Source: a virus (taxonomy: Duplodnaviria; Caudoviricetes). Taken from it: a stretch of 40,466 nt of DNA. The first letter of the stretch is position 1; each line of letters begins with the position of its first letter. Under the pieces are notes generated by a model that did not search any database, was not told the origin of the DNA, and saw only the letters and a list, made by a program, of their open reading frames with translations. The position numbers and the translations under genes are program-made. Below, in pieces: positions 6,474 to 40,466 of this stretch. The stretch is from IMG/VR virus record IMGVR_UViG_3300049730_000275, positions 1 to 40,466 of that record, one strand, 5' to 3'.

Positions 6474-7258
6474 CTACCCCATCCTTTGCCCACGCAGTCG
6501 CCCCACACGGGGCAGGTCGGGGTACAGCGCCACGAGCCCGGGTTGGGGACGAAGGCGCCCGCTTCCATCGCCCGCCACGCCGCCTGGATGTACTCGACCA
6601 CCCAGAAGAGCCGCGCCGGCCGGTACTCGACTTCGAGCACCTGCACCTGCGGACGGTGGCCCTTCACGAACACCCACCAGCGGAAGGCCAGGCGGGGCAG
6701 CGTGTGGCCCATCTGGAGCAGCGCTGCCAGGTAGATCAGCGGTTGCACCTCGCGCTCGGCGCGTTCCTGCGTCCACGGCCGGGCCGAGGTCTTGATGTCC
6801 CCCGGCACGCCATCGGCGCACACCACGTCCGCGAATCCGATCACCGGGATCGGCACCCCCGGCACCCGCAGCTCGAGGCGCTTCTGCAGCTGGGGCGTCC
6901 CGTCCTCGACGGACACCTCGATGTGATCCAACGCCTCGCGGGTGCCCGCATACGTCACCAGGCGCCGGCCCTGGGCCTCGACCTGTTCGGGCAGCTCGCC
7001 GTTCCACGCCACGCCGGGGTGCTCGCCGGCGCGCCCCGACCACGCTTCCGCCCAGAGCGTGGGCAGATCGCCGTGATCGCCCAGCGCTCGCGTGCGCAGA
7101 TAGCGCTCGACGCACGCGTCGAACACGCTGCCCAGCAGCAGCGCGGGCGTCACCGGCGTGGCCAGGCCGTCGACATAGCGCGCACGCCACGCCCGACCAC
7201 AATCACTGAATAAATGGAGCGATGAGTGACTCAAGTGATCCAGGCGAAGCTCACTCAT
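6470..7258 (-). CDS. Cas4/RecB-like PD-(D/E)XK exonuclease with Fe-S cysteines
   Basis: LSHSSL..FSDC, GFADV, DIKTS, QPLIY, and C-terminal C-x3-C-x5-C. Confidence 0.88.
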   Translation of the reverse strand: MSELRLDHLSHSSLHLFSDCGRAWRARYVDGLATPVTPALLLGSVFDACVERYLRTRALGDHGDLPTLWAEAWSGRAGEHPGVAWNGELPEQVEAQGRRLVTYAGTREALDHIEVSVEDGTPQLQKRLELRVPGVPIPVIGFADVVCADGVPGDIKTSARPWTQERAEREVQPLIYLAALLQMGHTLPRLAFRWWVFVKGHRPQVQVLEVEYRPARLFWVVEYIQAAWRAMEAGAFVPNPGSWRCTPTCPVWGDCVGKGWGR

Positions 7259-8034
7259 CGCACGTGCTTCCACATCTGCCGCAAGATGACCTTGCTGATG
7301 ACGGCCTGACTGACGCCGTACTGTTGGGCGAGCTCGTGTTGCACAATGCCGCCTCGGGCAAAAGTTGCGCGTATGGCTCTGACCTTGTCGTCGTCGAGCT
7401 TGGCTTTGGGCTGCTGCACGCCGCGACGCAAACGTTCTGGATGGGTGCGCGACCCGTGGCGATCTCCCCTCGGGCGACGCTCCGGCGGCGTATGGACGAA
7501 CCCTCGCCCCTTGGCAAACATGTCGGCCATGTTCTCGGCGTGCGTACCAAGAAAGAGATGCGCCGGATTGACGCAGCGGGGATTGTCGCCGCCAGGGCAG
7601 TTGTGGCAGACGTGCAAGCCGGCGGGAATAGGGCCGCGGTGCAGCTGCCACGAGTACCGGTGTGCGGTCGTGTGTCGGCCGTTCACGTAGAACTGTCCAT
7701 AGCCGGTGGGCATCACCGGGCTGGTCCACACCCAACAGCCCATTTCCTGCTTGTCCACCTTGGCCCAAAAACGCGATTCCGGGGTCCCGAACGCCGCAAA
7801 GAAGCAGGCCCGACTACAGAAGCGTGTCGCTCGTGTTTTGACCGCAGAGGGGGTGACCCAAAACGTCGCGCCGCACTGTTCGCACCGCCGTTCGCTCCGT
7901 GGCTCGGTCACCATCGCGCGCGCTGCGCACGTCTGTCCGCAGTACCGCCCCTTCCCTCGCCTCACGAGATCCAGCCGAGCACGGAACTCCATGCCACAGT
8001 GCGCACACGTCCGCGGGATCGTTGAGCGCCCCAT
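7255..8034 (-). CDS. Free-standing HNH homing endonuclease 1 (two Zn fingers, HNH, C-terminal HTH)
   Basis: CAHC/YCGQTC/CEQC/FCSRAC; [40 protein letters not shown]; QHELAQQYGVSQAVISK; lower GC than neighbours. Confidence 0.92.
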   Translation of the reverse strand: MGRSTIPRTCAHCGMEFRARLDLVRRGKGRYCGQTCAARAMVTEPRSERRCEQCGATFWVTPSAVKTRATRFCSRACFFAAFGTPESRFWAKVDKQEMGCWVWTSPVMPTGYGQFYVNGRHTTAHRYSWQLHRGPIPAGLHVCHNCPGGDNPRCVNPAHLFLGTHAENMADMFAKGRGFVHTPPERRPRGDRHGSRTHPERLRRGVQQPKAKLDDDKVRAIRATFARGGIVQHELAQQYGVSQAVISKVILRQMWKHVR

Positions 8035-8701: not shown

Positions 8702-9453
8702 GATTTCACCTCAGCCTCGCGTCCCAATTGCGCCGCCACCGCCTCCACCGCCGCGTCGTCGGCCGGGATCGTCCCGCCGGCCGCGGCCAGCACCCGCTCG
8801 GCGCCGAACTCGTCGACCAGCGCCTGCAGGCTGCGCCCGTTGGCCGCCGGCTGCCACGCCGCGTCGACGATCGCCCCGTCGGCCCCCCCGCGCGTGTCCT
8901 GCGCGTTCGGGATGGCGATCACGTTGCCCGCCTCGTCGACGTCCGCCCCGAATTCGTCGGCCCGTTTCATCCCCCCGATCACGTCGGCGAACAGCACGTC
9001 GGCGACGAAGCCCACCGCCCGCCACTTGCACATGTTGCGCGGGTACGTCTCCCACGCGCCGCCGGGCTTGATCAGCCCGGCCCGCCTGGCGTCGGCGATC
9101 GTCCAGCCCGTCTCGTACTCCAGCTCCCCGCGCTTCATCCACACCGAGCAGCCGTCCGCGCTCTCCGTGATCCGCAGGCCGTCCAGCTCGCCGGAGCGCA
9201 TCACCAGCGCCAGCGCCCCGCGGGGCGAGAGCGTGGGCTTCCCCTGGATGACCTGGATCAGCTCGAAGCTGGCGGCCAGGCCCAGGCCCAGCTCGGTGCC
9301 CTTCAAGCAAATCGCCATAGCAGCCTCCACCGAACTACAGCCAAACAAGCGTGACTTGTGGAGCACGGGCGCAACTACCTCAATGAGATGCCACCGTTCG
9401 TTGGTCAATGCGTAGTCCGGCGCAACTCGTTCTTGGCGTGGCGCGTCGCTCAT
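8698..9453 (-). CDS. RecT/Red-beta-like single-strand annealing protein
   Basis: GTELGLG..SFELIQVIQGKPTL..ALAL..WTIADARRAGL..WETYPRNM..RA..FADVIGG; sits close to the exonuclease gene. Confidence 0.85.
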   Translation of the reverse strand: MSDAPRQERVAPDYALTNERWHLIEVVAPVLHKSRLFGCSSVEAAMAICLKGTELGLGLAASFELIQVIQGKPTLSPRGALALVMRSGELDGLRITESADGCSVWMKRGELEYETGWTIADARRAGLIKPGGAWETYPRNMCKWRAVGFVADVLFADVIGGMKRADEFGADVDEAGNVIAIPNAQDTRGGADGAIVDAAWQPAANGRSLQALVDEFGAERVLAAAGGTIPADDAAVEAVAAQLGREAEVKS

Positions 9454-10028
9454 CAACTCTTCTCCCGAACACCCATACCTGGCTTGACACCACGAACGAT
9501 TTTGCTGATGGTGGTTTGCGCTACGCCGTGCTGTACTGCAAGTTCGTTTTGCGTGACCGTGCCAGTCCGGTAAAGGCCGCGAATCGCATTTCGTTGATCT
9601 AGCGACAGCGATCCACCGTGCCGCCAGTGCCGCGCACCGCGCGGTGTTGCCTCGGGTTTTGTGTGGCGACCGTGTCGCATTCCCGTTGGTCTTCTGCCGG
9701 GGCGGTTTTTGCTCCAATGGGTCTCCCCATGGACTTGCCGCCCCTTTACTGAGCGATCCGCATGGTTGGTCGCGGGGGTGCCCAAAAACAGGTGCGCCGG
9801 GTTCACGCACGGCGGGTTGTCGCACCCATGACAAATGACGAGACCCTCGGGAATGGGACCGTTTTCGGCGAACCACGCGAACCGGTTTGCACGCCAATTG
9901 CGACCCTGGTACGAGAACACGCCGTAGCCTTTCGGATTACGAAAGCCCGTCCACACCCAACACGCTTTGGGGCCGCAACTCGTATCGACGCGCTGCCAGA
10001 AATCTCGCGCAGTGTTCTTGCGGCCCAT
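9453..10028 (-). CDS. Free-standing HNH homing endonuclease 2 with C-terminal HTH
   Basis: [36 protein letters not shown]; [18 protein letters not shown]; TAATG overlap in and TGATG overlap out. Confidence 0.92.
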
Positions 10029-26742: not shown

Positions 26743-28158
26743 TTACGGCCGGACGGCCAGGGCCACGAAGTGCGACTTGGTGTTGCCGCCGTGCGCCGGC
26801 GAGACGGCCGCCGACAGGTACGGCTGCCCGCCCAACCGGAACGTCCAGCGGAACGCGTCGATGTTGTAGTCGAAGTACAGGTGGATACTCGACGCGAACT
26901 GCGGGCTGTCCGTCCGGCGGGTGGCGTAGTACCCGGTCGGGTCGACCAGTTGGATGTCGCCCGCGGCGCCCAGCGTCTGGCAGTGCTCGCTGGGCTGGAC
27001 CGGGCGCCCGAAGAGGAACCCCCCGGGCGCGCCCGCGAACCCGGTGGCCGGGGGCGTCCAGATGGGCTGGTCGCCCAACGTGAGCTGCACCAACTGGGGC
27101 AGCACGTCGGGGTTGATCTTCCAGACGGCGCGGCCCAGCGAGCCGGCCAGCAGCCGGCCGAGCATGTTGGCCACGTTGGCGGCGATGACGGTCGCCGTGG
27201 TCTGGCTGCTCTCCTTGGCCACGCTGATCAGCGCGCCCGAGGTCATCCAGCCCAACGGCTGCCCCGCGCCCGTCCCCCACATGATCGCGTCGCTGGTCTT
27301 CCAGGCGATCGCGCGGGCCGCGCCCCGCGAGAGCCGGTCGTTCAGCCGGGGCGCGTCCTGCAGCAACTCTTCGGTGGCCAACACGAAGGCGTAGAGCGGG
27401 TGGAGGGGGACCTGCACCAGGTCGGTGTCCAGCCGGCTGGGCGTCATCTGGGTGCCCTCGGCACGCCAGCGGGCCTGGATGCCGGTGGCACCCCAGGGCG
27501 TGCTCTCGTCCTTGAGCAGCTCGACCACGTTGCTGCTGGTCATCTCCGGCCCGACCTGGGCCAGCAGGTTGTCCTCGTCGGCCGCGACCAGCTCCCAGAT
27601 CCCGTCGCGGAAGTCCGGCGGCACCATGTACCCGTCGGGCGTGGCGCTCTCCAGGTGGAAGTTGGCCGGCGCGGCGCCGTACTGGCCGGGCTGGCCATAG
27701 CCGGTGCCTAGCCCGCGCAGGCGGTCGTCGACCGGCCCGCCGGGCAGGAGCGCGCCCTTGACCGCCAGGGCAAACTGGGCCAACGTCGCGAACCCGCGCC
27801 GCGGGTCGTCGAGGCGCCGCTCGTGGAGCAGCGCCACCGCTGCTCCGGCTGCCCCGAATCCGGTCGCGGCCGGTGCGGGAGACGGGGGCGCCGGCCCGCC
27901 CGCGACCGCGGCCGGCAGCGCGGGCTCGAGGCGCAAGCGCTCGCGCTGGCGTTCCTCGCGCTCGATCTCGCCGGCGAGCGCTTCCAGGCGGGCCTGGATG
28001 GCGTCGTCACGCCGGCGTTCGTCGTCGGTCAAGTCGCGGGCGTGCCCGTTCTGGGCGTCCTGGGCGTCGGCCTCGACGGCGGCGAAGAGGGCCTGCCCCT
28101 CGCGCACGAGCGCCGCCCGCTCGTCGAGGAGGTGCTGGTAGCGTCCGGGCATCGGCAT
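26743..28158 (-). CDS. HK97-family major capsid protein
   Basis: Coiled-coil delta domain, GYMVPPDF, TEELLQDA, GTGAGQPLG, LFGRPV. Confidence 0.95.
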   Translation of the reverse strand: MPMPGRYQHLLDERAALVREGQALFAAVEADAQDAQNGHARDLTDDERRRDDAIQARLEALAGEIEREERQRERLRLEPALPAAVAGGPAPPSPAPAATGFGAAGAAVALLHERRLDDPRRGFATLAQFALAVKGALLPGGPVDDRLRGLGTGYGQPGQYGAAPANFHLESATPDGYMVPPDFRDGIWELVAADEDNLLAQVGPEMTSSNVVELLKDESTPWGATGIQARWRAEGTQMTPSRLDTDLVQVPLHPLYAFVLATEELLQDAPRLNDRLSRGAARAIAWKTSDAIMWGTGAGQPLGWMTSGALISVAKESSQTTATVIAANVANMLGRLLAGSLGRAVWKINPDVLPQLVQLTLGDQPIWTPPATGFAGAPGGFLFGRPVQPSEHCQTLGAAGDIQLVDPTGYYATRRTDSPQFASSIHLYFDYNIDAFRWTFRLGGQPYLSAAVSPAHGGNTKSHFVALAVRP

Positions 28159-28367
28159 CGCTGGCTCCCTGGCTCCTGGGCTGCTCCGTGGTGGAGCTGG
28201 TGGAGCGGCGGGCACCAAAAAGGTGCGCACCGCGGCCTGCGGACCATCCCGGTGGGGATCGTCCGGCAACCGACGGTCGCGCACCTCGCGACGGCGCGGC
28301 GCTTCCGTGTTACCCCCGCGGACACCAGATCGCGTCGGCGCTGGACTAGGCGGGAGCCTTCGAGCGC

Positions 28368-29009
28368 TTACTGTAGCCGCGCCACCGAGAGGTCGTCAAG
28401 CACGGCCATCCGCACCAGCCCCAGCACCGCAGCATGGCCGGCCAGCGCCTCATCCCAAGTGCGATAGCGCTCGCAGATCTCTTCGTCTGCCTGCGCTTCA
28501 CCAGCCGCGGCCGGCATCCCCTTCGCAGCCTTCGTATAGAACACCATCGTTTCGAACAGCACCGGACCACGCGCCGACCCCTCGAAATTGTGATCGACCC
28601 CCAGGAAGACGGTAGACACGCGCGCCGTCGAACCGCTCGGGAGTGCCACGGCGTCATCGGCAACCTGCCGATCGGCATTGGCCCACCATTCCGACCATTC
28701 GAGCCAGTCACGCGCCGGGCGCGGCACGTGGCCGTCGAGCACGTAGTTGAGGCGCAGATTCATCCCAAGTGGCACCGTCGCGCGCGCTGGGCGCGGCCCC
28801 TTAGCCCCGGTCTGGTGGGCAGCCTGGTGGGCGTTCGCCCATGCACCGAGACAGGTGAGTGAGCAGAAGTGGTGTGGCGCGTCGTGGATGACTGCCGGGT
28901 CGGCATTGCATGTGAAGAGCACCTGGCCGTACACATCCAGTTCCCACCAATTCACCGGCGGCTCCGGCGCCTCAACATGGCATTGGTTGCATCGAGTCGA
29001 CATGGCCAT
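28368..29009 (-). CDS. Moron: Zn finger fused to VSTVFLG..FETMVF-family phage protein
   Basis: CNQC...HFCSLTC; VSTVFLGVDH..PVLFETMVF..RYRTWDEALAGH; lower GC. Confidence 0.7.
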   Translation of the reverse strand: MAMSTRCNQCHVEAPEPPVNWWELDVYGQVLFTCNADPAVIHDAPHHFCSLTCLGAWANAHQAAHQTGAKGPRPARATVPLGMNLRLNYVLDGHVPRPARDWLEWSEWWANADRQVADDAVALPSGSTARVSTVFLGVDHNFEGSARGPVLFETMVFYTKAAKGMPAAAGEAQADEEICERYRTWDEALAGHAAVLGLVRMAVLDDLSVARLQ

Positions 29010-29073
29010 TGCGGCCCCCTTCCAGACCGAGAGCACGCGAGGCGCGCCGGCGGAAGGACACCGCAGGGGCTGA

Positions 29074-30138
29074 TCAGGCCACGCGCCTGCGCATGCTACG
29101 AGTGTGCGCCAGATGATACCCGGCCGCCTGCGTCTCGCGGAACCGTTGCCGGCGCCGGCGCCAGTCCAGCCCGCTGACCAACTCCCAGGGCGGTTCCTCG
29201 CAGTGCCGTCCGGCGTCGGCGCGGAGCTGCGCCTCGGTAGCCGGCCCGGCATTGGCCACCAGCGCAGCGGCCCGCTGGCCAAGCTGCGCCCGCCCGCGCG
29301 CCGACTGCAGCCGCGCGATGGTTTGGGGCAGGCTTTCCACCCGATCGGCCATCCCCAATTCGACCGCCTCGCGGGCGCCCACCACGCGCCCCTCGCCGAA
29401 CCCGTTGCGGACCGTGGCCACGGACACGCCCCGGTGGCGGGCCACGTCGCGGGTGAACATGCCGTAGTAGTCGTCGACCCGCGCCTGGATCGCCGCCCGC
29501 GCCTCGGCCGTGAGCGGCGCGAAGGGGCTGGCCTCGCCCTTGTACGTACCGGCGTTGATCAAGCTGACGGTGACCCCTTCCTGGTCGAGGCGCCGGCTGT
29601 GATCTTCGTGGGCGGCGAGCACGCCGATGCTGCCGACCTCGCCCGACGGCGTGACGACCAGCTCGTCGACCGCCGTGGCCAGCCAGTAGGCCGCGCTCGC
29701 CGCCAGGCTGTTGGCCACGGCGACGAGCGGCTTGCTGCCACGTGCCTCGTACAGGGATTGCGCCAGCTCGGGCACGCCGAAGACCGCGCCACCCGGTGAG
29801 TCGACGTCGAGGAGGACCGCCGCCACCTCGGGATTGGCGATGTGCGCGCGCAGGTCGGCCGCGATCTGCTCCGTACTCGTGCCGCCGCTGGAGGCGCCCA
29901 GCAACCCGGCGCGCTGGGCGATCACGCCGTGCACCGGGATCACCGCCACGCTGCCGTCGTTCACCCTCCCCGCCCCCGACGGTCCGTCTCGCGGCGGGCC
30001 AATGCGGGCGGCGATCTGCTCGACGGGGAGGCGCCCGCCCGCTGCCCGGAAGGCCAGCAGCTCGACGATGACGCCGAGCATCTCCGGCCGAATGGCCCAG
30101 GGCGTGTCGAAGACGAAGCGGGCGATGCGGTCGTACAC
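29074..30138 (-). CDS. S49-family prohead protease
   Basis: DVDSPGG, AASAAYWLA, VGSIGV, AGTYK. Confidence 0.93.
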   Translation of the reverse strand: MYDRIARFVFDTPWAIRPEMLGVIVELLAFRAAGGRLPVEQIAARIGPPRDGPSGAGRVNDGSVAVIPVHGVIAQRAGLLGASSGGTSTEQIAADLRAHIANPEVAAVLLDVDSPGGAVFGVPELAQSLYEARGSKPLVAVANSLAASAAYWLATAVDELVVTPSGEVGSIGVLAAHEDHSRRLDQEGVTVSLINAGTYKGEASPFAPLTAEARAAIQARVDDYYGMFTRDVARHRGVSVATVRNGFGEGRVVGAREAVELGMADRVESLPQTIARLQSARGRAQLGQRAAALVANAGPATEAQLRADAGRHCEEPPWELVSGLDWRRRRQRFRETQAAGYHLAHTRSMRRRVA

Positions 30139-32404: not shown

Positions 32405-33958
32405 CTACACCACCAGAAGCGCCTCGCCCTCGCGTTCCCAGCGCGAGGCCCGTCGTTCGCGACGGATCGCCCGGTCCAGCGCCATAACAAGCCCCAACAT
32501 CCCGTCGATCTTCTCGGTGCTCTTCTGCTTGTCGGGCTTGAGGTTGCCGGCGGGGTCGGTGCGCACCACCAGGTTGTCGGCGTTCCAGCGCAGCACCGGG
32601 TGCCCGCCGTGGCGCAACCGGCCGGCCAGGACCAGGTTGAGCAGCTCCTTGGTCGGCGGCGAGAGGGTGGCGAAGCCCTGGCCCATGGCCACCACGGGCA
32701 GGCCGTCGTCGCCAAGCTCCTGGGCCAGTTGCGTGGCCCCCCAGCGGTCGAAGCCCAGCTCGCGGATGCGGAACTCGGCACCCACATCGCGCAAGGTCTG
32801 GCGGATCGCGCCGTAGTCGATCACGTTGCCCGGCGTCGCCTGCACCAGGCCCTGGCGCACCCACAGGTCGTAGGGCACGCGGTCGCGGCGGGTCCGCTCC
32901 GCCACGGTGGCCGCCGGGACCCAGAAGAACGGCAGCACGTCGTACCCCTCGGGCTCGGCGCCGTCGGGAAAGACCAGCACCAGCGCCGCCAGGTCGGTCG
33001 TGCTGGCCAGGTCGAGGCCGGCGTAGCAGTCGCGCCCGCGCAGCGCCGCCCGGTCGACCGCGCCGGCGCAGGCGTCCCACCGGTCGAGCGCCAGCCAGCG
33101 CGTCTCGCTCGCCGTCCACTGGCACAGGTACAGGCGCCGGAAGGCGTTCTCCAGCGCCGGCACCTGGCGCGCCCGCTCCGCCAGCGCCCGCATCTCGTCG
33201 AGCGAGCGGAAGTCGCCCAGCGCCGGGTTCGCCGCGCGCCATACCGCCTCGTCGGTCCAGTCGGCGTCCTCGGGCGCCGCCCGGATGTAGGCGAAGAAGG
33301 ACGGATCGTCGACCGTGCCGTCGAGCACCTGCCGGGCGTGCTCGTGCAGCTCCCAGCAGATCGAGTGCCGGTCGAACCCGGCCGTGGTGATCGCGAACGT
33401 GAGCGGCTGCCGGCGGGCCCCGGTCGACGTGGTGAGCACGTCCCACAGGTCGCGGTTCGGTTGGACGTGCAGCTCGTCGACGATCACGCCGTGGGCGTTG
33501 AATCCGTGCGAGCCGGCCGCGTCGGCCGGGATCGCCCGGTAGAAGCCGCCGTCGGGCAACAGCAGGCGCTTGGTGGCGTCGAGCACCTGGCAGCGCCGGG
33601 CCAGCTCGGCCCGGCGCTTGACCATCTGCGCCGCCACGCCGTAGACCAGACTGGCCTGGTCGCGGTCACCGGCTGCGCCGTAGATTTCCGCGCCCGGCTC
33701 CCCATCGGCGAACAGGAGGTACAGCGCGATCCCGGCCGCCAGTTCGGTCTTACCCTGCTTGCGGGGCATCTCCACGTAGGCGGTGCGGTAGCGCCGCGTG
33801 CCGTCGGCGTTGAGCGTGCCGAACAGCGGGCGGATCAGCTCGTGCTCCTGCCACGGCGCCAGCACGAACGGCCGGCCGGCCCACTCGCCTTTGGTGTGCA
33901 CCAACAGCCGGCTGAACCAGTTCACGGCGCGATCAGCCGCCCTAGCCGAGTAGGGCAT
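32405..33958 (-). CDS. terL: Terminase large subunit
   Basis: PWQ, RKQGKT (Walker A), IVDELH, ITTAG, GLDLASTTD, KIDG. Confidence 0.97.
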   Translation of the reverse strand: MPYSARAADRAVNWFSRLLVHTKGEWAGRPFVLAPWQEHELIRPLFGTLNADGTRRYRTAYVEMPRKQGKTELAAGIALYLLFADGEPGAEIYGAAGDRDQASLVYGVAAQMVKRRAELARRCQVLDATKRLLLPDGGFYRAIPADAAGSHGFNAHGVIVDELHVQPNRDLWDVLTTSTGARRQPLTFAITTAGFDRHSICWELHEHARQVLDGTVDDPSFFAYIRAAPEDADWTDEAVWRAANPALGDFRSLDEMRALAERARQVPALENAFRRLYLCQWTASETRWLALDRWDACAGAVDRAALRGRDCYAGLDLASTTDLAALVLVFPDGAEPEGYDVLPFFWVPAATVAERTRRDRVPYDLWVRQGLVQATPGNVIDYGAIRQTLRDVGAEFRIRELGFDRWGATQLAQELGDDGLPVVAMGQGFATLSPPTKELLNLVLAGRLRHGGHPVLRWNADNLVVRTDPAGNLKPDKQKSTEKIDGMLGLVMALDRAIRRERRASRWEREGEALLVV

Positions 33959-34397
33959 CGAGGCCTCCGTCGGCCGGCCGTTCGGGCACCGTCATGCGCG
34001 CGCGCGCTGACGGGGTCAGGCCGAACTCGTGGCAGAACGCGCGCACCAACGCGAGACTCTTCTGCGCGATCGCCACCTCGGGCCGCACGCCGACAAACCC
34101 CGTCTGGGTGGTGAACGTGAGCTCGCCGTCGCGCACCCGTTCTTCAGCCGCGCGCCACCGGCTGTACGCCTGGCAGTACCCCGCCAGCGCCGCGCGATCG
34201 ACCACCGTGAGCAACCCCAACCGGCGCAGCTCGGGCGCCACCCGGCGCCACTCGCGCTTGGCTTCGGGCTCGAGCCACGCCGGGCACGCCGGAAGCCCCC
34301 CCCCGCCGCGCGGGGGGGGGCCCCGGGGCGGCCGCGGGGCGGGGGCCGTGAGCACCTTGAGCGCCAGCGGTTCGGGTGCCGGTCCGCGCAACCCCAC
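33942..34397 (-). CDS. terS: Terminase small subunit, P27 family
   Basis: GPAPEP, PAWL..EAKREW, D..ALAGYC..Y, EFGLTPSAR. Confidence 0.93.
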   Translation of the reverse strand: MGLRGPAPEPLALKVLTAPAPRPPRGPPPRGGGGLPACPAWLEPEAKREWRRVAPELRRLGLLTVVDRAALAGYCQAYSRWRAAEERVRDGELTFTTQTGFVGVRPEVAIAQKSLALVRAFCHEFGLTPSARARMTVPERPADGGLDALLG

Positions 34398-34544
34398 GCG
34401 CTACCCCCCGACGAGAAACACCGCGGCGTTCGCACGGTGCTGCCCGCCCGGTTGGACGCCTCCCGGCCGGACTTTCGACCCCCCTACCCCCTCGGCCCAC
34501 TCGCACCCCGGTCGTGGCTCGTGACGCATCGTATCGCCCTCCCT
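34398..34544. other. Probable cos region
   Basis: Non-coding gap between the packaging HNH and P27 terS, the usual cos location in such phages; G-rich gggggtaggggggtcgaaagt on the minus strand. The exact cut site cannot be determined. Confidence 0.45.
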
Positions 34545-34886
34545 TCACGCCACCCGATCGCGCCGCCGGCTGTTGCAGCGCAAACATAACACTCTGCAAT
34601 TTGCCCGCGTCGCCGACCCGCCGTGGCTCGCCGGCACGATGTGGTCGCCGGTGAGCGGGTTATCGGTCGTGCCGGTGGTGCCACACCAGCTGCACCACGG
34701 TTGGCGCTTGAGCGCTGCTGCGACGACACGCCTCCACGCGCCGGTGTAGCCGCGCTCGGTGGACGTGCCCCGCCGCCCGGTATCGGTGCGCCACTGCGCG
34801 GCGCGGCACACCCGACAGCGCTGGCCGCCGGGCACCACCGCCCGGCAGGTAGGACAGACGCGCGCCGCACGCACCGCTGCCGTCAC
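34545..34886 (-). CDS. Terminase-associated HNH endonuclease (HK97 gp74-like)
   Basis: RGY..AW..CSWC..DHIVP..GG..NCRVLCLRCNSRR, immediately before terS. Confidence 0.88.
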   Translation of the reverse strand: MTAAVRAARVCPTCRAVVPGGQRCRVCRAAQWRTDTGRRGTSTERGYTGAWRRVVAAALKRQPWCSWCGTTGTTDNPLTGDHIVPASHGGSATRANCRVLCLRCNSRRRDRVA

Positions 34887-34942
34887 GCCAACGCCCCCAC
34901 GATCTCAATCTGGAGGTGCGCGTCGTTTGGTACGCTGTAGGC

Positions 34943-35482
34943 ATGAGAGACATGCGGATCGAGCGCCGGTGCGCAACCTGCGGTGGCCCATTCCTCGTTT
35001 CGCCATCCCGCCTGGCGCAACCGAATGGGGGCCGCTTCTGCTCGGTGCGCTGCCGCGGCGCTGCCCGCAAGGGCGTCCGCCTGGGAGAACGCTCGTCGCA
35101 GTGGAGGGGAGGAAAGGTTACCCGCCCCTGCGCTACCTGTGGCCGGGCGATTACCCGTTTCCCATCCAGGCTCAGGAGAGGACCAGCGTGGTACTGCTCG
35201 CACGCGTGCGCCAGCACACGGCGGGGTGCGGAGGCCAATCCGTGGAAGGGTGGGAGGTACATCAGGAAGGACGGGTACGTCCGCATCACCTTGCCCGATG
35301 GCCGAAAGGTGCTCGAACACCGCCACGTGGTGGAGCAACGGATTGGGCGCCCGCTGCTGGCCGGCGAGCACATCCACCACCGGAATGGCGACAAGGCCGA
35401 CAACCGGGATGAGAACCTGGCGGTCCTGACCAACAGAGAACATCGATTGCTGCATGTCAGGCAAGCTGGTCGACAATCCTGA
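34943..35482 (+). CDS. Antisense-inserted HNH homing endonuclease 3
   Basis: Two CxxC..CSxxC fingers, NPWKGG, GYV, EHRHV, IHHRNGDKADNRDENL; extended -10 TGgTACGCT at 34928-34936, 6 nt before ATG (leaderless). Confidence 0.9.
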   Translation: MRDMRIERRCATCGGPFLVSPSRLAQPNGGRFCSVRCRGAARKGVRLGERSSQWRGGKVTRPCATCGRAITRFPSRLRRGPAWYCSHACASTRRGAEANPWKGGRYIRKDGYVRITLPDGRKVLEHRHVVEQRIGRPLLAGEHIHHRNGDKADNRDENLAVLTNREHRLLHVRQAGRQS

Positions 35483-35798
35483 GTGTGAGATAGGAGTCGT
35501 TCGGAAACGACTCCTGGCCCGCCTCCCACGTGGCCGTAAATTCGCCCCAGAACACGCCCGCCGTCGTGGTATCGGCCGGTAGCCAGTCGTAGCGCACGCG
35601 CCCGCTGGTCGCGTCGTCGTCGATCACACACGGCCGCCGGTCGATAATCGGCTCGGCACCGGGCGGCGCCTGCTCGGGCACCATCGTGAACACGACGGCG
35701 GCGCCGGTGAGGTCGACGGCGTTGCCGTCGGCGTCTTGCAGCGTGACTCGCAAGCTCGGCAACGCGTCGCCCTGTTTCATCCATATGTCGGCAGCCAT
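35457..35798 (-). CDS. BppU-like Ig-fold virion protein
   Basis: KQGD..VTLQD..AVDLTGA..GRVRYDW..DT..AG.F.GEF. Confidence 0.78.
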   Translation of the reverse strand: MAADIWMKQGDALPSLRVTLQDADGNAVDLTGAAVVFTMVPEQAPPGAEPIIDRRPCVIDDDATSGRVRYDWLPADTTTAGVFWGEFTATWEAGQESFPNDSYLTLRIVDQLA

Positions 35799-36080
35799 CT
35801 ACCGTGCCCTCCCGTGCTGCATCCCGCCCGGTGGCTCGGTCTGTACCCGCGTACGGCGCGTGCCGCTGAGCACGACACCAGTAGCCGACGCTGCGGCGAG
35901 CACGGCGCTGTGCCGGCTACCGTCGAGCGCCACGCGCGTCGGCGTCACGATGTCGGCGCCCGGCGGAAGGTCCGCTATCCAGACCAGTTCGTACCACGTG
36001 AGGCCCGTCGCGTGGAGTTCCCCCCACGTCAGGCCACTCTCGTGCATGCCCCGCCACGAGCCGTAGCGAAGCGTCGGCAT
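35799..36080 (-). CDS. Small virion-associated protein with TW.EL repeats
   Basis: GLTWGEL / GLTWYEL; abuts both neighbours. Confidence 0.55.
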   Translation of the reverse strand: MPTLRYGSWRGMHESGLTWGELHATGLTWYELVWIADLPPGADIVTPTRVALDGSRHSAVLAAASATGVVLSGTRRTRVQTEPPGGMQHGRAR

Positions 36081-36082
36081 CG

Positions 36083-36355
36083 CTACCGCCCTCCCCTCGA
36101 TGGCCCGCCGTTTACCGCTGCTTGGGCAACTCGCGGCACCACGTCGCCGTCATCGGGCCGGAATTGGAGCGGACCGGCCAGCCACGGTGCCCGCGGCAGC
36201 AGCGCCAACGCGTAGCCGCGCCAGAGCGCCGCGCCGACCTCCGTCCGGAGCGCGATCTGGATGAGGCTCGCCGAGAGCTGCGCCGGCAGCGGCACGGCGA
36301 CCGTCTCGCCGCGCCTTTCCTCGGCGAGGTCGATACCTGGGGCCGTATCGTTCAT
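36083..36355 (-). CDS. Small hypothetical protein
   Basis: AAGGAG immediately upstream of ATG at 36355; fills the gap. Confidence 0.5.
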   Translation of the reverse strand: MNDTAPGIDLAEERRGETVAVPLPAQLSASLIQIALRTEVGAALWRGYALALLPRAPWLAGPLQFRPDDGDVVPRVAQAAVNGGPSRGGR

Positions 36356-36360
36356 CTCCT

Positions 36361-38628
36361 TCAACTCATCCCGTAGAGGGCGCACCAGCTCCCGGCGGCG
36401 AGGTTCCCCGAGTTGGCCGAGACCGTCAGTTGGGTGATCGCCGCCGTACTGCGCCAGTGGGACATGACCAGCCCGGCACCCATCCCGCTCGACGAGGCCG
36501 CCGTCTTCTGCCCGAACTCGCAGCGCGCCGTCTTGTGGAAGGTCGTCGCCGCGTAGCGCAGCAGCTCGACGCGGGCTGTACTGGTGGCCCCGGACGCGGC
36601 GCCGCTCAAGGGGATATCCCCCATCCCCATGCCGGTGGCCGCGGCGATCCCTCCGGTGGCGGCCGTGCTGCTGCTGCCGGTGAAATACTGGAAATCGTAG
36701 TTGGCCGCCGAGTCCCCGTTCGCCCGCAGGGTCAGGCCGGTAACGCCCGATCCCGCCCCGGTGGAGCGCCCATTGAAGAGCAGGACCAGGGCGCTAAACG
36801 TCTGGGGGATAGAGGTAAAGCTCACGCTCGCGGTATCGGCGCCGAGAGCCTGCTCGGCGATCTTGGTGAGCCCCCCCGCCCACTTGACGCCGAGGCTCTG
36901 CGTGCTATCGGCGGTCAGGACGTGGCCATCCGTGCCCACGGCGAGGCGCCCGATCGCGTCGGCCGCACTGGCCGCGAACAGGTCGCCCTTGGCGTCGGCC
37001 AGCGGGTCGGTGGCGAGGCCGCCGGCGGCCGGCGCCTCGGCCCGCCACTTGGCGGCCCCGCTGTTGTAGGTGAGCACGTCGCCGTTGGCCGGCGTGTCGG
37101 CGGCGTCGACGTCGGGATGGTCGGCGGCGAAGAGGTTATGCGCCTGGGCGTGGTGGGCGTTGGGGAGGGCGGCGTGCGCCGTAACCGGGTTGGCCACCCA
37201 CCTGATGCCCGCCGCCTGGGCGCTATCGGCGCTGAGAAATTGCCCGTTGCTACCCACGGCCACCCGCGCCGCAGTGTCCGCCCCGGTGCCCGCCGCCAGG
37301 TCGCCCTTGGCGTCCCAAATCGTGTCCGTGGCCACGTCACCGCCGCCACCGGCACCCCCGGCGCCGACGTTAATCACCATCGTCACCGGTCCAGCGTTGG
37401 CGATCGCGCTGCCCTGCGTGCCGTCTTGCGTCACGCTCATCGACCACCAGCCGGTATTGTTCGTCGGCGTCGCCGTCAACCGCAGCCGGGCGTACCGGGT
37501 GTGGTCGTTTTTCTGCTGGACGTACAGCGTGTCGCCCTCGAGCAGCGAGCCGAATACCGGCGCGGCGTCGACCCCGTCGTTGGTGAGCGTATCGATGGCC
37601 AGCGTGCCCGCCGTGGCCAGGTTGCCGGTGTTGCAGCGGATGTTCCCCTGGCCGGGATCGGCCAAGGTCGTGTTGGTCGAGAAGTAGAACTGCCCGTGCA
37701 GCGGCCACTCCGACGCGCCCGGCGAGTAGAAGCCGTCCACGCGCCACTCGAAGACGTTGCCGGCGTCACCCGACACGGCCACCGGACTGCCGGCCACCGT
37801 GAGCGTGTCCGCCAGATCGGCCGCAAGCGCGTTGAGCACGCGGAAGCGGTTGGATGCCGTGCCCAGGTAGCCCTCGCCGTCGACGGTGGGCAGGAACGTC
37901 TGGTCGCCCACCACGTAGAGGGGATCCTGCAGGTACGTGGTGCTGTCCAGCACCAGGCCGCCCTCCGCGTGAATCTCGTTCTCGTAGGTGGTGATCCCGG
38001 AGAGAGTCTGATCGGCAGTAAGACTGGCGTAGCGCAAATCGGCCGCGGCCGCAGTGAGCGCGCCCACGTCGGCCGCGTCGAGCAGCACAGTGCCGGTTTG
38101 GCCGTTGACGCTCGATACGCCGGTAACGGTGCCGCCGACCAGGTACCAGTTGGCGAGCGTGGTCGGCGGCGCGGCGCCCAGAATGTAGGTTTCGTTGCTG
38201 TCGCTGCGGATGGCCACGTCGCCGACTTGCGCCGACAGCGCCAGCATGGCGGCCTGCGACGTGACGACGTAGGTATCGGTAATGGCCAGCGGCGGCAGAT
38301 GCACGCTCGGAATGAACCCACCGGCATCGAGCGGCGCGTACCCATCGGCTTGCCCCCTGGCGCTGAGCGCTTGGTACGCAGCCAGGTCGGCATCGGTGGC
38401 GTATTGCGGATGCGGGTTGGTGCCCGGTTGGTGCGACACCGGCAGGTAGCGCAGATCGGCCGCGTCGAGAGTCAGATACCCGCCGTCGTTAGCTGGGTCG
38501 TTGAGCCAGGCCGGCACGCCCGCGTCGACGTCGAGCAGGGCGTCGTCGATCTGCCGCCAGTCGTTGACGGCGTCACCGTCGAGCAAGCGGATGCCCAGAT
38601 TCGGCGTGAGCGGCGGGTAGATGGTCAT
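36361..38628 (-). CDS. Mosaic fibre protein (755 aa)
   Basis: NPHPQY, VSSVNGQTG, two DAKGDL..R.AVG..G..L.ADS modules; C-terminal VSFTSIPQTF..WRSTAAIT..LYG tip. Confidence 0.85.
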   Translation of the reverse strand: MTIYPPLTPNLGIRLLDGDAVNDWRQIDDALLDVDAGVPAWLNDPANDGGYLTLDAADLRYLPVSHQPGTNPHPQYATDADLAAYQALSARGQADGYAPLDAGGFIPSVHLPPLAITDTYVVTSQAAMLALSAQVGDVAIRSDSNETYILGAAPPTTLANWYLVGGTVTGVSSVNGQTGTVLLDAADVGALTAAAADLRYASLTADQTLSGITTYENEIHAEGGLVLDSTTYLQDPLYVVGDQTFLPTVDGEGYLGTASNRFRVLNALAADLADTLTVAGSPVAVSGDAGNVFEWRVDGFYSPGASEWPLHGQFYFSTNTTLADPGQGNIRCNTGNLATAGTLAIDTLTNDGVDAAPVFGSLLEGDTLYVQQKNDHTRYARLRLTATPTNNTGWWSMSVTQDGTQGSAIANAGPVTMVINVGAGGAGGGGDVATDTIWDAKGDLAAGTGADTAARVAVGSNGQFLSADSAQAAGIRWVANPVTAHAALPNAHHAQAHNLFAADHPDVDAADTPANGDVLTYNSGAAKWRAEAPAAGGLATDPLADAKGDLFAASAADAIGRLAVGTDGHVLTADSTQSLGVKWAGGLTKIAEQALGADTASVSFTSIPQTFSALVLLFNGRSTGAGSGVTGLTLRANGDSAANYDFQYFTGSSSTAATGGIAAATGMGMGDIPLSGAASGATSTARVELLRYAATTFHKTARCEFGQKTAASSSGMGAGLVMSHWRSTAAITQLTVSANSGNLAAGSWCALYGMS

Positions 38629-38958: not shown

Positions 38959-40466
38959 CTACGGACTGACTGGTTGCGCAACCGGTTGCGCGAGCGCCAG
39001 GCCATCATAGTGCCACTCCTGCCGGTTGCCAATAACGTGCCTCGTCAGCGCCAACTTGGGCCGTAACCGCTTCACGGCCAGCCCAAACGCGGTGTCGCTG
39101 GGCACCGGTCGACCCTCGCGCCGGCAGGCCTGTTGGTAGGCCACGCGCACCAGCCGGCAGGGCGTGGACGCCGCTGGGTCGTCGCGCGTTTCGGCATCCA
39201 GCCAGATCGCAACGGGGTCCGTGGTAGCCCGGAATTCGAGCCACGCGGCGCGCATGCTCGGCGTTTCGGCGATGCCCCGCACCTGCACCGCCGACAGCAC
39301 GTCGAGTGCCCGGTTGAGCACCCCCGACAGCTCATGGGGGTCAGCCAGCTCGGCGTCCAGCGTCTCGCGTGGCCGGGTGCCGGCCACGCCGGGCTCGAAC
39401 TGGCGCTCGAAGGGCAGCACCAGCCAACGTCGAAAGAACGCGTGGCTACTATCGTTGCTGCGGGGCAGGTGGTTGGCGCTGAACACCAGCCGACAAAAGG
39501 GGTACAGGTCCCACTGGCGGCCGTACTTGACCTCGGCGTGCACGCTATCGTCGCCGTCCGTCAGCGCCTTAAACACGCTGGTCGACGCTAGGTGCTCGCT
39601 GGGCAGATCGGGGCAGATATTGGCCAATTTTCCCTGGAGCCGGGCCGCCGCGAAGCGATCCGCTTCCAGCCGGTGCAGGCTGATCCCGGCAGTGTTCTGG
39701 CGACCCAGCAGCGCCCGGTAGGCGCGTAGCATGGTGGATTTCCCGTTGGCGCCCTCGCCGGTGAGCAGGACGGCCTGCTGCACGCTTTTGGTGGGGCACA
39801 GCAGCAGCGCGGCCAGCTGCCACGGCACGCCGGCGGCCACGCAGTCGGCCGGCCACACCTCGCCAACGAAGCGCTCCCAGGCGGGACAGGTGGCTTGCGG
39901 GTCGTAGCGGATGGGCAGCTGGATGGTGGTGCGGTAGTCCGGATCGTGCGGACGCAGCACACGCGTGGGCCAGTCGAGCAGCCCGTTGCGCACGTTCAGC
40001 ACGCCCCAACGGGGGCGCTCTTCGAGCTCGGGCGCGTCGATCGCCAGACGGTTGGCCGCTTCGGTGACGAGCTGGCTGGTCCACAGGCCGGGTAGCTTCC
40101 AGCCGTCAAGCAACGCTGTAATACGCTGGCCCAGGGAGCGGTGCGCGCGGTCGCCGTAGACGCCGGCACGGTACAGGTACAGGGTGTCGCTGGCGTCGAC
40201 GGCGAACCGCTCGCTGGACGCCAACGCCTCGACACAGCGCCACACCAGCCAGCTGCCGCCCCGTGCCGGCGGCGTGCTGGTCGCGGTGCTACCGGTTCCA
40301 CTGCCGGTACCGCTGCTCCCGCCGCCAGGAGATCCGGCAGCAGCACCCGGCGGCCCGGTTTGTGCGCCAGTCGCTGCCATTTGTATGACAATTGAGTCGG
40401 CTTCTAAACCGGGCCGCGGCCCGGTTTGTGGGGCAGGCGGCCCGGTTTGTGACGCGCGTAAACCGG
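38959..40466 (-). CDS. Primase-helicase, C-terminal half: D5/P4-family SF3 helicase
   Basis: D5_N-like LNVRNGLLD..PHDP; Walker A GEGANGKS; Walker B ANICPD; motif C FSANHLP. The frame is open from 40465 (GLRASQTGPP..LEADSIVIQM). Confidence 0.94.
   Translation of the reverse strand, partial: GLRASQTGPPAPQTGPRPGLEADSIVIQMAATGAQTGPPGAAAGSPGGGSSGTGSGTGSTATSTPPARGGSWLVWRCVEALASSERFAVDASDTLYLYRAGVYGDRAHRSLGQRITALLDGWKLPGLWTSQLVTEAANRLAIDAPELEERPRWGVLNVRNGLLDWPTRVLRPHDPDYRTTIQLPIRYDPQATCPAWERFVGEVWPADCVAAGVPWQLAALLLCPTKSVQQAVLLTGEGANGKSTMLRAYRALLGRQNTAGISLHRLEADRFAAARLQGKLANICPDLPSEHLASTSVFKALTDGDDSVHAEVKYGRQWDLYPFCRLVFSANHLPRSNDSSHAFFRRWLVLPFERQFEPGVAGTRPRETLDAELADPHELSGVLNRALDVLSAVQVRGIAETPSMRAAWLEFRATTDPVAIWLDAETRDDPAASTPCRLVRVAYQQACRREGRPVPSDTAFGLAVKRLRPKLALTRHVIGNRQEWHYDGLALAQPVAQPVSP
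40400..40466. repeat. Other end of the 54-bp array
   Basis: Identical to 68-134; one extra isolated ggcccggtttgtg near 40352. Confidence 0.95.

Follow-up and report, generated by a model that had tools for sequence, protein, structure and literature searches.

A hidden, out-of-frame HNH endonuclease, the ShiLan domain, has been described in actinobacteriophage DNA methylase genes (PMC11855218). In fungal mitochondria, homing-endonuclease inserts in Allomyces atp6, Ophiostoma rps3 and Phlebia atp6/cox2 are reported to bring a new C-terminus to the host gene and to displace the old one (PMC4019555). In phage T4, segD is a free-standing gene that lies antisense between genes 23 and 24, reportedly with no dedicated promoter; among the sense mob/seg genes, cases of overlap and of translational coupling are described (PMC2988022). 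In ambigrammatic narnaviruses, a real gene is overlaid by a reverse ORF that has no homologues, and translation itself has been proposed to be the function of this ORF (PMC8316113). Antisense genes are also described as nested within the transcripts of noncontiguous operons, a regulatory device that entails mutual exclusion (PMC11034616, PMC11087260). Polarity is attributed to untranslated RNA, with an optimal Rut length of 60-90 nt (PMC12360218).

Here we analyse an HNH gene (HNH3) that lies backwards in a phage operon. The window, i.e. the whole 40,466-nt stretch of DNA under analysis, is a 40.5-kb temperate phage of about 71% GC that encodes an integrase, repressor, portal, S49 protease and capsid, and DNA of this phage is present in soil metagenome runs. 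Genes on the minus strand follow the order tail-fibre-like gene, two small genes, bppU-like gene, packaging-type HNH, terS and terL. HNH3, in plus orientation, separates bppU from the packaging HNH. The features at the locus are as follows.

33942..34397, minus strand: terS (Pfam Terminase_4, E 9e-28).
34545..34886, minus strand: packaging-type HNH gene (Pfam HNH, E 2.8e-11), located before terS/terL; downstream partner of the bridge ORF.
34883..35455, minus strand: bridge ORF of 190 codons, comprising the antiparallel frame of HNH3 and then, in frame, a putative relic BppU tail.
34943..35482, plus strand: HNH3, a zinc-finger plus HNH_3 endonuclease of 179 aa (Pfam HNH_3, E 2.7e-10), antisense to the operon.
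35457..35798, minus strand: bppU-like gene of 113 aa with an Ig-like baseplate/virion domain; upstream host gene of HNH3.

The bppU-like protein scores below the curated cut-off of Pfam BppU_N (20.2 versus 23.1; E 5e-4). Its AlphaFold model has a confident Ig-like fold (pLDDT 93.7), and a Foldseek search with this model matched baseplate proteins of phages 80alpha and TP901-1 (TM 0.57-0.72). The 34545..34886 gene we take to have a packaging role, as is established for HNH genes of cos phages; GTG at 34874 is an alternative to GTG at 34886 as its start. The tail-fibre-like and bppU-like genes (35457-38628, minus strand) lie upstream of terS, away from the main tail genes. Elsewhere in the window, short GC-rich repeats at 1-130 and 40400-40466, between primase-polymerase-like and D5-type helicase genes, possibly mark an origin of replication, and inspection of the gap at 28158-29074 revealed no second antisense insert. 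A stretch of G/C runs in the 5' part of terS (34300-34350) differs at 12 bases between the window and locus L011 plus three runs, reflecting either strain variation or an assembly error.

HNH3 is likely a free-standing homing endonuclease. Its N-terminal half has Cys-rich repeats, and residues 56-167 show about 50% identity to the HNH found inside mycobacteriophage methylase genes, e.g. ShiLan gp65. Placement within an intron or intein was ruled out, as no Rfam match at E<=1 occurs within 34300-36200 and no Pfam intein family was matched. A search for target-site repeats around the insert gave nothing past chance-like pairs. The codon score of HNH3 is non-native, and hence the gene may have arrived recently. 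No insert-free allele was seen among 91 bppU-bearing and 22 packaging-HNH-bearing loci or, by blastn, in annotated phages; indeed, 0 of the 91 bppU loci hold a packaging-HNH match or HNH3. Nor did contigs of eight runs, four of them perhaps this DNA's own source, contain a joint that skips the insert. Foreign codon use and a duplicated tail (described below) are indirect signs that the presence of HNH3 is optional. HNH3 would be a homing element, and bppU and the packaging HNH would once have been adjacent, as judged from the relic only. One metatranscriptome run yielded a contig identical to the window at 35106-35341; such contigs are strandless and DNA carry-over is possible, and we do not count this contig as evidence.

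A preliminary description of the locus reported that, on the operon strand, an ORF begins 1 nt after the bppU stop, stays open for 190 codons and ends in an overlap with the packaging HNH. All of this holds in the sequence, coordinates included. The bppU stop (TGA, 35459-35457) is followed by C and then by ATG (35455-35453), and the bridge stop (TGA, 34885-34883) overlaps the GTG at 34886, giving GTGA. The bridge is offset by +1 from bppU and is a separate ORF, with no stop across the insert. A +1 frameshift fusing BppU with the bridge was considered and rejected, as no motif or homologue supports it.

How often would such a frame be open by chance? The frame of the bridge is exactly antiparallel to that of HNH3, so a stop in it requires a TTA, CTA or TCA codon in HNH3. 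These three codons account for 23 of the 8,702 codons in 27 native genes, and the antiparallel frame is fully open in 14 of those genes. When native sequence is divided into non-overlapping segments of 179 codons, 24 of 34 are equally open; the preliminary description had itself cautioned that long antisense ORFs are common at this GC content. Under a model trained on sense-inserted HNH relatives, the probability that HNH3 contains no such codon is 0.11-0.22. Two sense HNH_3 genes lie in the early region of the window (7255-8034 and 9453-10028, both on the minus strand); they have one antiparallel stop in 259 codons and two in 191, respectively, and in the former the frame is open for 256 codons. 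As for the 5' junction, the bridge ATG is the CAT codon for His171 of HNH3 read backwards, and it has no well-spaced Shine-Dalgarno sequence. Near HNH ends, CAT, CAC and CAA make up 48 of 600 codons. Taken alone, the openness and the 5' junction of the bridge are no evidence. The GTGA at the 3' junction is not due to chance, yet it accompanies a 17-codon copy of the BppU C-terminus. The coupling at the two ends thus adds no independent evidence here, the ATG being an HNH His codon and the GTGA coming with the relic tail.

These figures allow for a shadow ORF, with the same insertion history as we propose below and with a bridge that is neither translated nor selected here. High GC content would open the frame, the His codon would give the ATG, the relic would give the GTGA, and initiation of the packaging HNH would depend on a weak G-rich site of its own within the relic. 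The openness of native segments and of the sense gene at 7255-8034 speaks for this, as do the identity of the ATG with His171, the value of 0.11-0.22 even under the stricter model, and the one-in-three chance that a relic is in frame. On the other side, four joint coincidences are needed, namely an open frame, a +1 start, an in-frame relic and a stop-free spacer. The pattern of a shadow ORF (codon-aligned, length within the prediction from codon use) holds for this locus when it is taken by itself, though not for antisense relatives as a class.

The copy at the 3' junction and its counterpart in bppU are the following.

35457..35510, minus strand: present bppU C-terminus, 17 codons plus stop, SFPNDSYLTLRIVDQLA; its last 26 nt overlap the 3' end of HNH3.
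34883..34936, minus strand: likely relic of the BppU C-terminus, with sequence SVPNDAHLQIEIVGALA and a stop codon that forms the GTGA overlap with the start of the packaging HNH.

Two homologous host-gene 3' ends thus flank the HNH3 ORF. To score them, we used a stop-anchored PSSM built on 31 distinct ends from 47 unique homologues (68 loci), with the window's own copies excluded. The profile gives the present bppU end 28.9 bits. The relic, at 21.2 bits, ranks second of 66,644 17-mers in the window; the next scores 8.5. Among the 703 stop-anchored peptides of the window, the next score below the relic is 1.4 bits. Gene ends of bppU aside, a single one of the 33,684 stop-anchored peptides from 319 other loci attained at least 12 bits (14.4, in L117). 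The relic falls just under the weakest leave-one-out family member (22.1 bits), and the Val that precedes its conserved Pro recurs in 15 of 133 scored family ends. Its detection needed the stop-anchored profile, as the relic is missed by the whole-domain approaches (0.8 bits with the full-length BppU HMM, no significant BLASTP match). The relic starts at a distance of 6 nt from the start codon of HNH3, continues the antiparallel frame of HNH3 without a shift, and keeps the hydrophobic pattern of the BppU family as well as the stop.

The relic and the present end are identical at 28 of 54 bases; by codon position, the matches number 9 (first), 13 (second) and 6 (third), each out of 18. This pattern fits two ends that diverged while coding, rather than a recent local duplication. 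In bppU, codons 1-96 have a codon adaptation of 0.66 and the present last 17 codons one of 0.32. For the relic the value is 0.49, or 0.64 when its first three codons are set aside; 2 of 30 gene ends lie below 0.32. These values, from only 14-17 codons, modestly favour the relic as the native end. The present last 17 residues contain the last predicted strand (residues 104-109), so that, going by the model, bppU could not have done without an end. We consider it likely that the relic is the displaced native end of bppU, and hold the reading of this sequence as a relic with good confidence; the present end would then be a replacement, foreign or remodelled. The GTGA overlap was likely inherited, because the relic likely carried the old coupling. 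Relics were seen in 0 of 14 and 0 of 16 relatives from the two sets described below (pairwise score against upstream-gene tails at most 6, versus 44 here).

Could the bridge product itself be functional, for instance as a spare terminal strand for BppU or as a regulator? The hydrophobic pattern and stop retained by the relic are what such a role would predict. The product has no Pfam or PHROG match, however, and the codon score of the bridge frame is strongly negative (-49). Moreover, the bridge ends of the 14 and 16 relatives share nothing with upstream-gene tails, and the end of BppU is already complete. We regard a functional product as very improbable. A single-sequence AlphaFold model of it gave a pLDDT of 30.9, to which we attach little weight, such models often being poor. 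The claim in the preliminary description that translation rather than the product is the function finds support at the family level and in a product without family match or predicted fold, though not in the local argument that was offered for it. The base composition of the bridge shows a slight excess of C (196 C versus 182 G), and with an excess so slight we do not claim a Rut site.

A comparison proposed with the preliminary description was that of stop depletion in antisense versus sense HNH homologues. We assembled two sets of relatives. Set 1 came from 81 loci, in which 78 distinct HNH matches were classed; L137 (broken ORF) and L187 (near-duplicate) were then dropped. Hand curation, done after the counts had been seen, gave 49 sense, 14 antisense-in-operon (window copy excluded), 6 embedded and 6 unclassified. 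The 13 antisense loci of the automatic classes had 11 antiparallel stops where 24-32 were expected (p 0.0003 by permutation), and the curated antisense class had 12 against 27-34 expected. The odds ratio for CTA plus TCA in antisense members was 0.26, compared to 0.81 for control A-ending codons. Over about 110 codons, the antiparallel frame was open in 12/14 antisense versus 11/49 sense members (p 3e-5; p 3e-4 with all six unclassified loci added), and in 11 of the 14 antisense loci the open frame spans the HNH gene.

Set 2 was collected with a different motif, and 52 of 120 loci were kept after length and redundancy filters; automatic classification put 28 loci in the sense class and 15 in the antisense class, leaving 8 others and one locus that has a long antisense ORF. 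The frame was open in 12/15 antisense versus 5/28 sense loci (p 1.6e-4). Nine of the 15 antisense loci share two insertion sites; after merging, eight sites remain, of which 5 or 6 have an open frame (p 0.024 and 0.005, respectively). With all eight other loci counted as antisense, p was 0.016. Our gene caller is crude, and some classes in either set may be wrong. Stops were present in 3/14 antisense relatives of set 1 (L148, L169, L184) and in 3/15 of set 2.

Depletion was thus seen in both sets, and antisense-inserted HNH members, as a class, avoid TTA, CTA and TCA. Avoidance by orientation was seen at 44-55% GC as well, and of 11 sense HNH relatives that are long and high in GC, only 2 had no stop. 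These data argue against the shadow ORF described above, which we consider unlikely, though still a serious alternative. They also bear on the earlier claim that the antisense frame is kept open, which is supported for the antisense relatives as a class and does not follow from openness at the window locus. In a quick tree with weak support, the antisense members of set 1 were scattered among sense members, and the embedded members fell on one branch.

Exact coupling recurs less well. Of nine scorable relatives in set 1, six have the bridge stop between -8 and +1 nt from the following start, where 1.0 would be expected; this range was picked after seeing the data, and junction starts were chosen by hand. 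Two relatives (L136, L182) show coupling at the 5' and 3' junctions alike, as in the window. Tight 3' coupling was found in 3/12 relatives of set 2 by our own reading, with no null for comparison. Many relatives, including several in set 2, have no start within 50 nt past the upstream stop. Hence coverage of the insert by an open frame repeats better than exact coupling. One relative of 44% GC (L209) has a Shine-Dalgarno-like site and an ATG 21 nt past the upstream stop, and its frame ends 1 nt before the next start. In L186, the gene after the bridge seemingly has no ATG, GTG or TTG start and may begin with ATT after a strong Shine-Dalgarno-like site (1706-1680, minus strand). One antisense HNH family (L218, L219, L223, L230, L255, L259, L264) lies repeatedly just upstream of a capsid-like gene; its antiparallel frame is open in 6 of 7, and the HNH and upstream stops often overlap by 4 nt.

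In the six embedded relatives (L141, L147, L160, L165, L171, L185), the HNH lies antisense and in frame within host ORFs of 645 to >1,400 codons, with HNH matches at about 2001-2500 of their loci. The antiparallel frame must be translated in these cases, because it is part of a real gene. Five of the six host ORFs match polyvalent-protein domains at E<1e-3; by domain, four match ART-PolyVal or LPD, one has GNAT domains and one has no Pfam match. L147 apparently has two reverse-read HNH motifs in its host ORF, and L165 and L171 share a common insertion loop. For one embedded host domain, seven proteins have a reverse-read HNH in the same loop and two are shown without it.

The embedded relatives suggest another origin for the bridge. 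HNH3 may first have sat in frame inside bppU, as a 170-residue loop before the last strand, and bppU may have regained an end later by recombination; the open frame would now be a vestige, or be read by occasional +1 slippage at the bppU stop. This would account for a relic that is in frame with the antiparallel frame of HNH3. It also has precedents in the six embedded relatives, one of whose host domains has insert-free homologues, and in the ShiLan element, which follows the same logic on the same strand as far as it is described (PMC11855218); the non-native codon use of HNH3, which may be recent, agrees with it too. Going by its predicted structure, however, an Ig-like domain of 113 residues would probably fail to fold if 170 residues lay between it and its last strand. 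A second illegitimate event is required, and no known +1 shift motif is apparent at the bppU stop. We therefore think this course of events improbable. It concerns origin and is partly compatible with the explanation that we prefer, in which the native end was displaced.

How might HNH3 be expressed? Within 34300-36200 we found no sigma-70 two-hexamer promoters and no intrinsic terminators. Two sites match an extended -10 element.

34928..34936, plus strand: candidate promoter of the extended -10 type, TGGTACGCT, which ends 6 nt before the ATG of HNH3.
34583..34591, minus strand: promoter-like TG-extended -10 site pointing at terS, one of four pattern matches in the window.

The first of these had been pointed out in the preliminary description, and it is placed as was said there. 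TGGTACGCT is the reverse complement of the first three codons of the relic, two of which are used in 3% of cases. The pattern TGnTAnnnT has four matches in the window versus 8.95 expected from shuffles; being rarer than shuffles predict, it makes for a weak match when taken alone. Across 21 antisense HNH loci (window included), TANNNT occurs 5-7 nt before the start in 9, of which 6 have TG, a count with no null attached. This recurring spacing in relatives supports TGGTACGCT as a candidate promoter for a predicted leaderless HNH3 mRNA. The second site lies inside the 3' end of the packaging HNH, uses a rare TTA codon and is 186 nt upstream of the terS start; it may be a separate promoter for terS/terL. 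Polarity on the packaging genes had been suggested as the reason for keeping the frame open. The part of that suggestion that concerns terS/terL is doubtful in view of this site, and how far a polarity effect would reach is uncertain, as terS may have its own promoter.

Taking the locus and its relatives together, we narrowly favour a scenario in which HNH3 lies between the complete bppU gene and that gene's displaced native end and carries on its other strand a stop-free frame that takes ribosomes to the packaging HNH. A homing HNH would have entered the bppU tail at conserved Pro-Asn-Asp codons. The gene would have been completed by a foreign or remodelled end, which would also have supplied the last residues and stop of HNH3, and the old bppU end would have been left behind with its old GTGA overlap. 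On the other strand, the first three relic codons would act as the promoter for a leaderless HNH3 mRNA, enabling expression apart from the operon. Avoidance of TTA, CTA and TCA, shown in relatives, would keep the operon-strand frame open in the window too. Having finished bppU, ribosomes would reinitiate at TGA C ATG, traverse the insert and, at GTGA, pass on to the packaging HNH. Translation of the 573-nt frame would preserve coupling to the packaging HNH, and, given a host with Rho and with transcription-translation coupling, translating ribosomes would shield ~570 nt of mRNA from Rho-type polarity. The bridge product would be junk, its translation being the function.

We lean towards translation of the bridge being under selection in the present day. 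The idea put forward in the preliminary description is likely right for the class and plausible at this locus. On a wider reading, phage HNH homing endonucleases would have a general, splicing-free stealth mode: backward insertion, selected avoidance of TTA, CTA and TCA, and a host strand that is read through, yielding either a loop in a large host protein or, between two genes, a dummy ORF. This locus would then be a fossil of the birth of a bridge, by tail insertion, tail replacement and reuse of the old tail as ribosome hand-over and promoter. To us, the case for and against this generalisation is evenly balanced.

If true, this model accounts, without invoking splicing, for selfish nuclease genes in backward orientation within essential phage operons. 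The bridge would be an ORF that functions by being translated and not by its product, held open through avoidance of three codons on the opposite strand. For annotators, it implies that reverse-read HNH genes account for some of the called hypothetical proteins and for some inserts in polyvalent proteins. It also suggests that insertion with a displaced C-terminus, known from fungal mitochondria, occurs in phages.

No description of antisense HNH bridges was found in the literature searched, most subscription papers being outside its reach. The word 'antisense' is absent from the main text on ShiLan (PMC11855218), as are 'reverse' and 'opposite', although its supplements might list opposite-strand cases. 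T4 segD, like HNH3, is a free-standing antisense endonuclease gene. Its antiparallel frame contains 9 stops over 223 codons, and the coupling described in T4 serves the endonuclease and not a bridge (PMC2988022). Narnaviruses, as portrayed in PMC8316113, differ in being RNA viruses of eukaryotes with whole-genome overlap and with no operon or mobile element. Noncontiguous operons likewise nest an antisense gene, and the accessible text of those reports has no word on an open covering frame (PMC11034616, PMC11087260).

The ShiLan element and HNH3 belong to the same HNH plus zinc-finger family; both have no intron or intein features, and in both the host-strand frame is free of stops across the insert (PMC11855218). 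ShiLan, so far as that account goes, lies on the same strand and inside the host ORF, whereas HNH3 lies on the other strand and has a candidate promoter to itself, bppU ends (35457) before HNH3, and a separate ORF crosses the insert. The ShiLan-type arrangement occurs in eight loci of set 1 (L127, L128, L129, L130, L139, L142, L153, L162), where the shifted same-strand frame has 0 stops in 8/8; long methylase-like host ORFs were present in the three loci inspected. The fungal inserts resemble this locus in having an endonuclease ORF between two 3' ends of a host gene (PMC4019555). They differ in that they are mitochondrial and encode LAGLIDADG or GIY-YIG enzymes, and no bridge frame or coupling to a next gene is described in the accessible part of that work. 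The closest published arrangements thus appear to be the same-strand hidden HNH of ShiLan together with the fungal displaced C-termini, and what sets the bridge of the window apart is its duplicated bppU tail.
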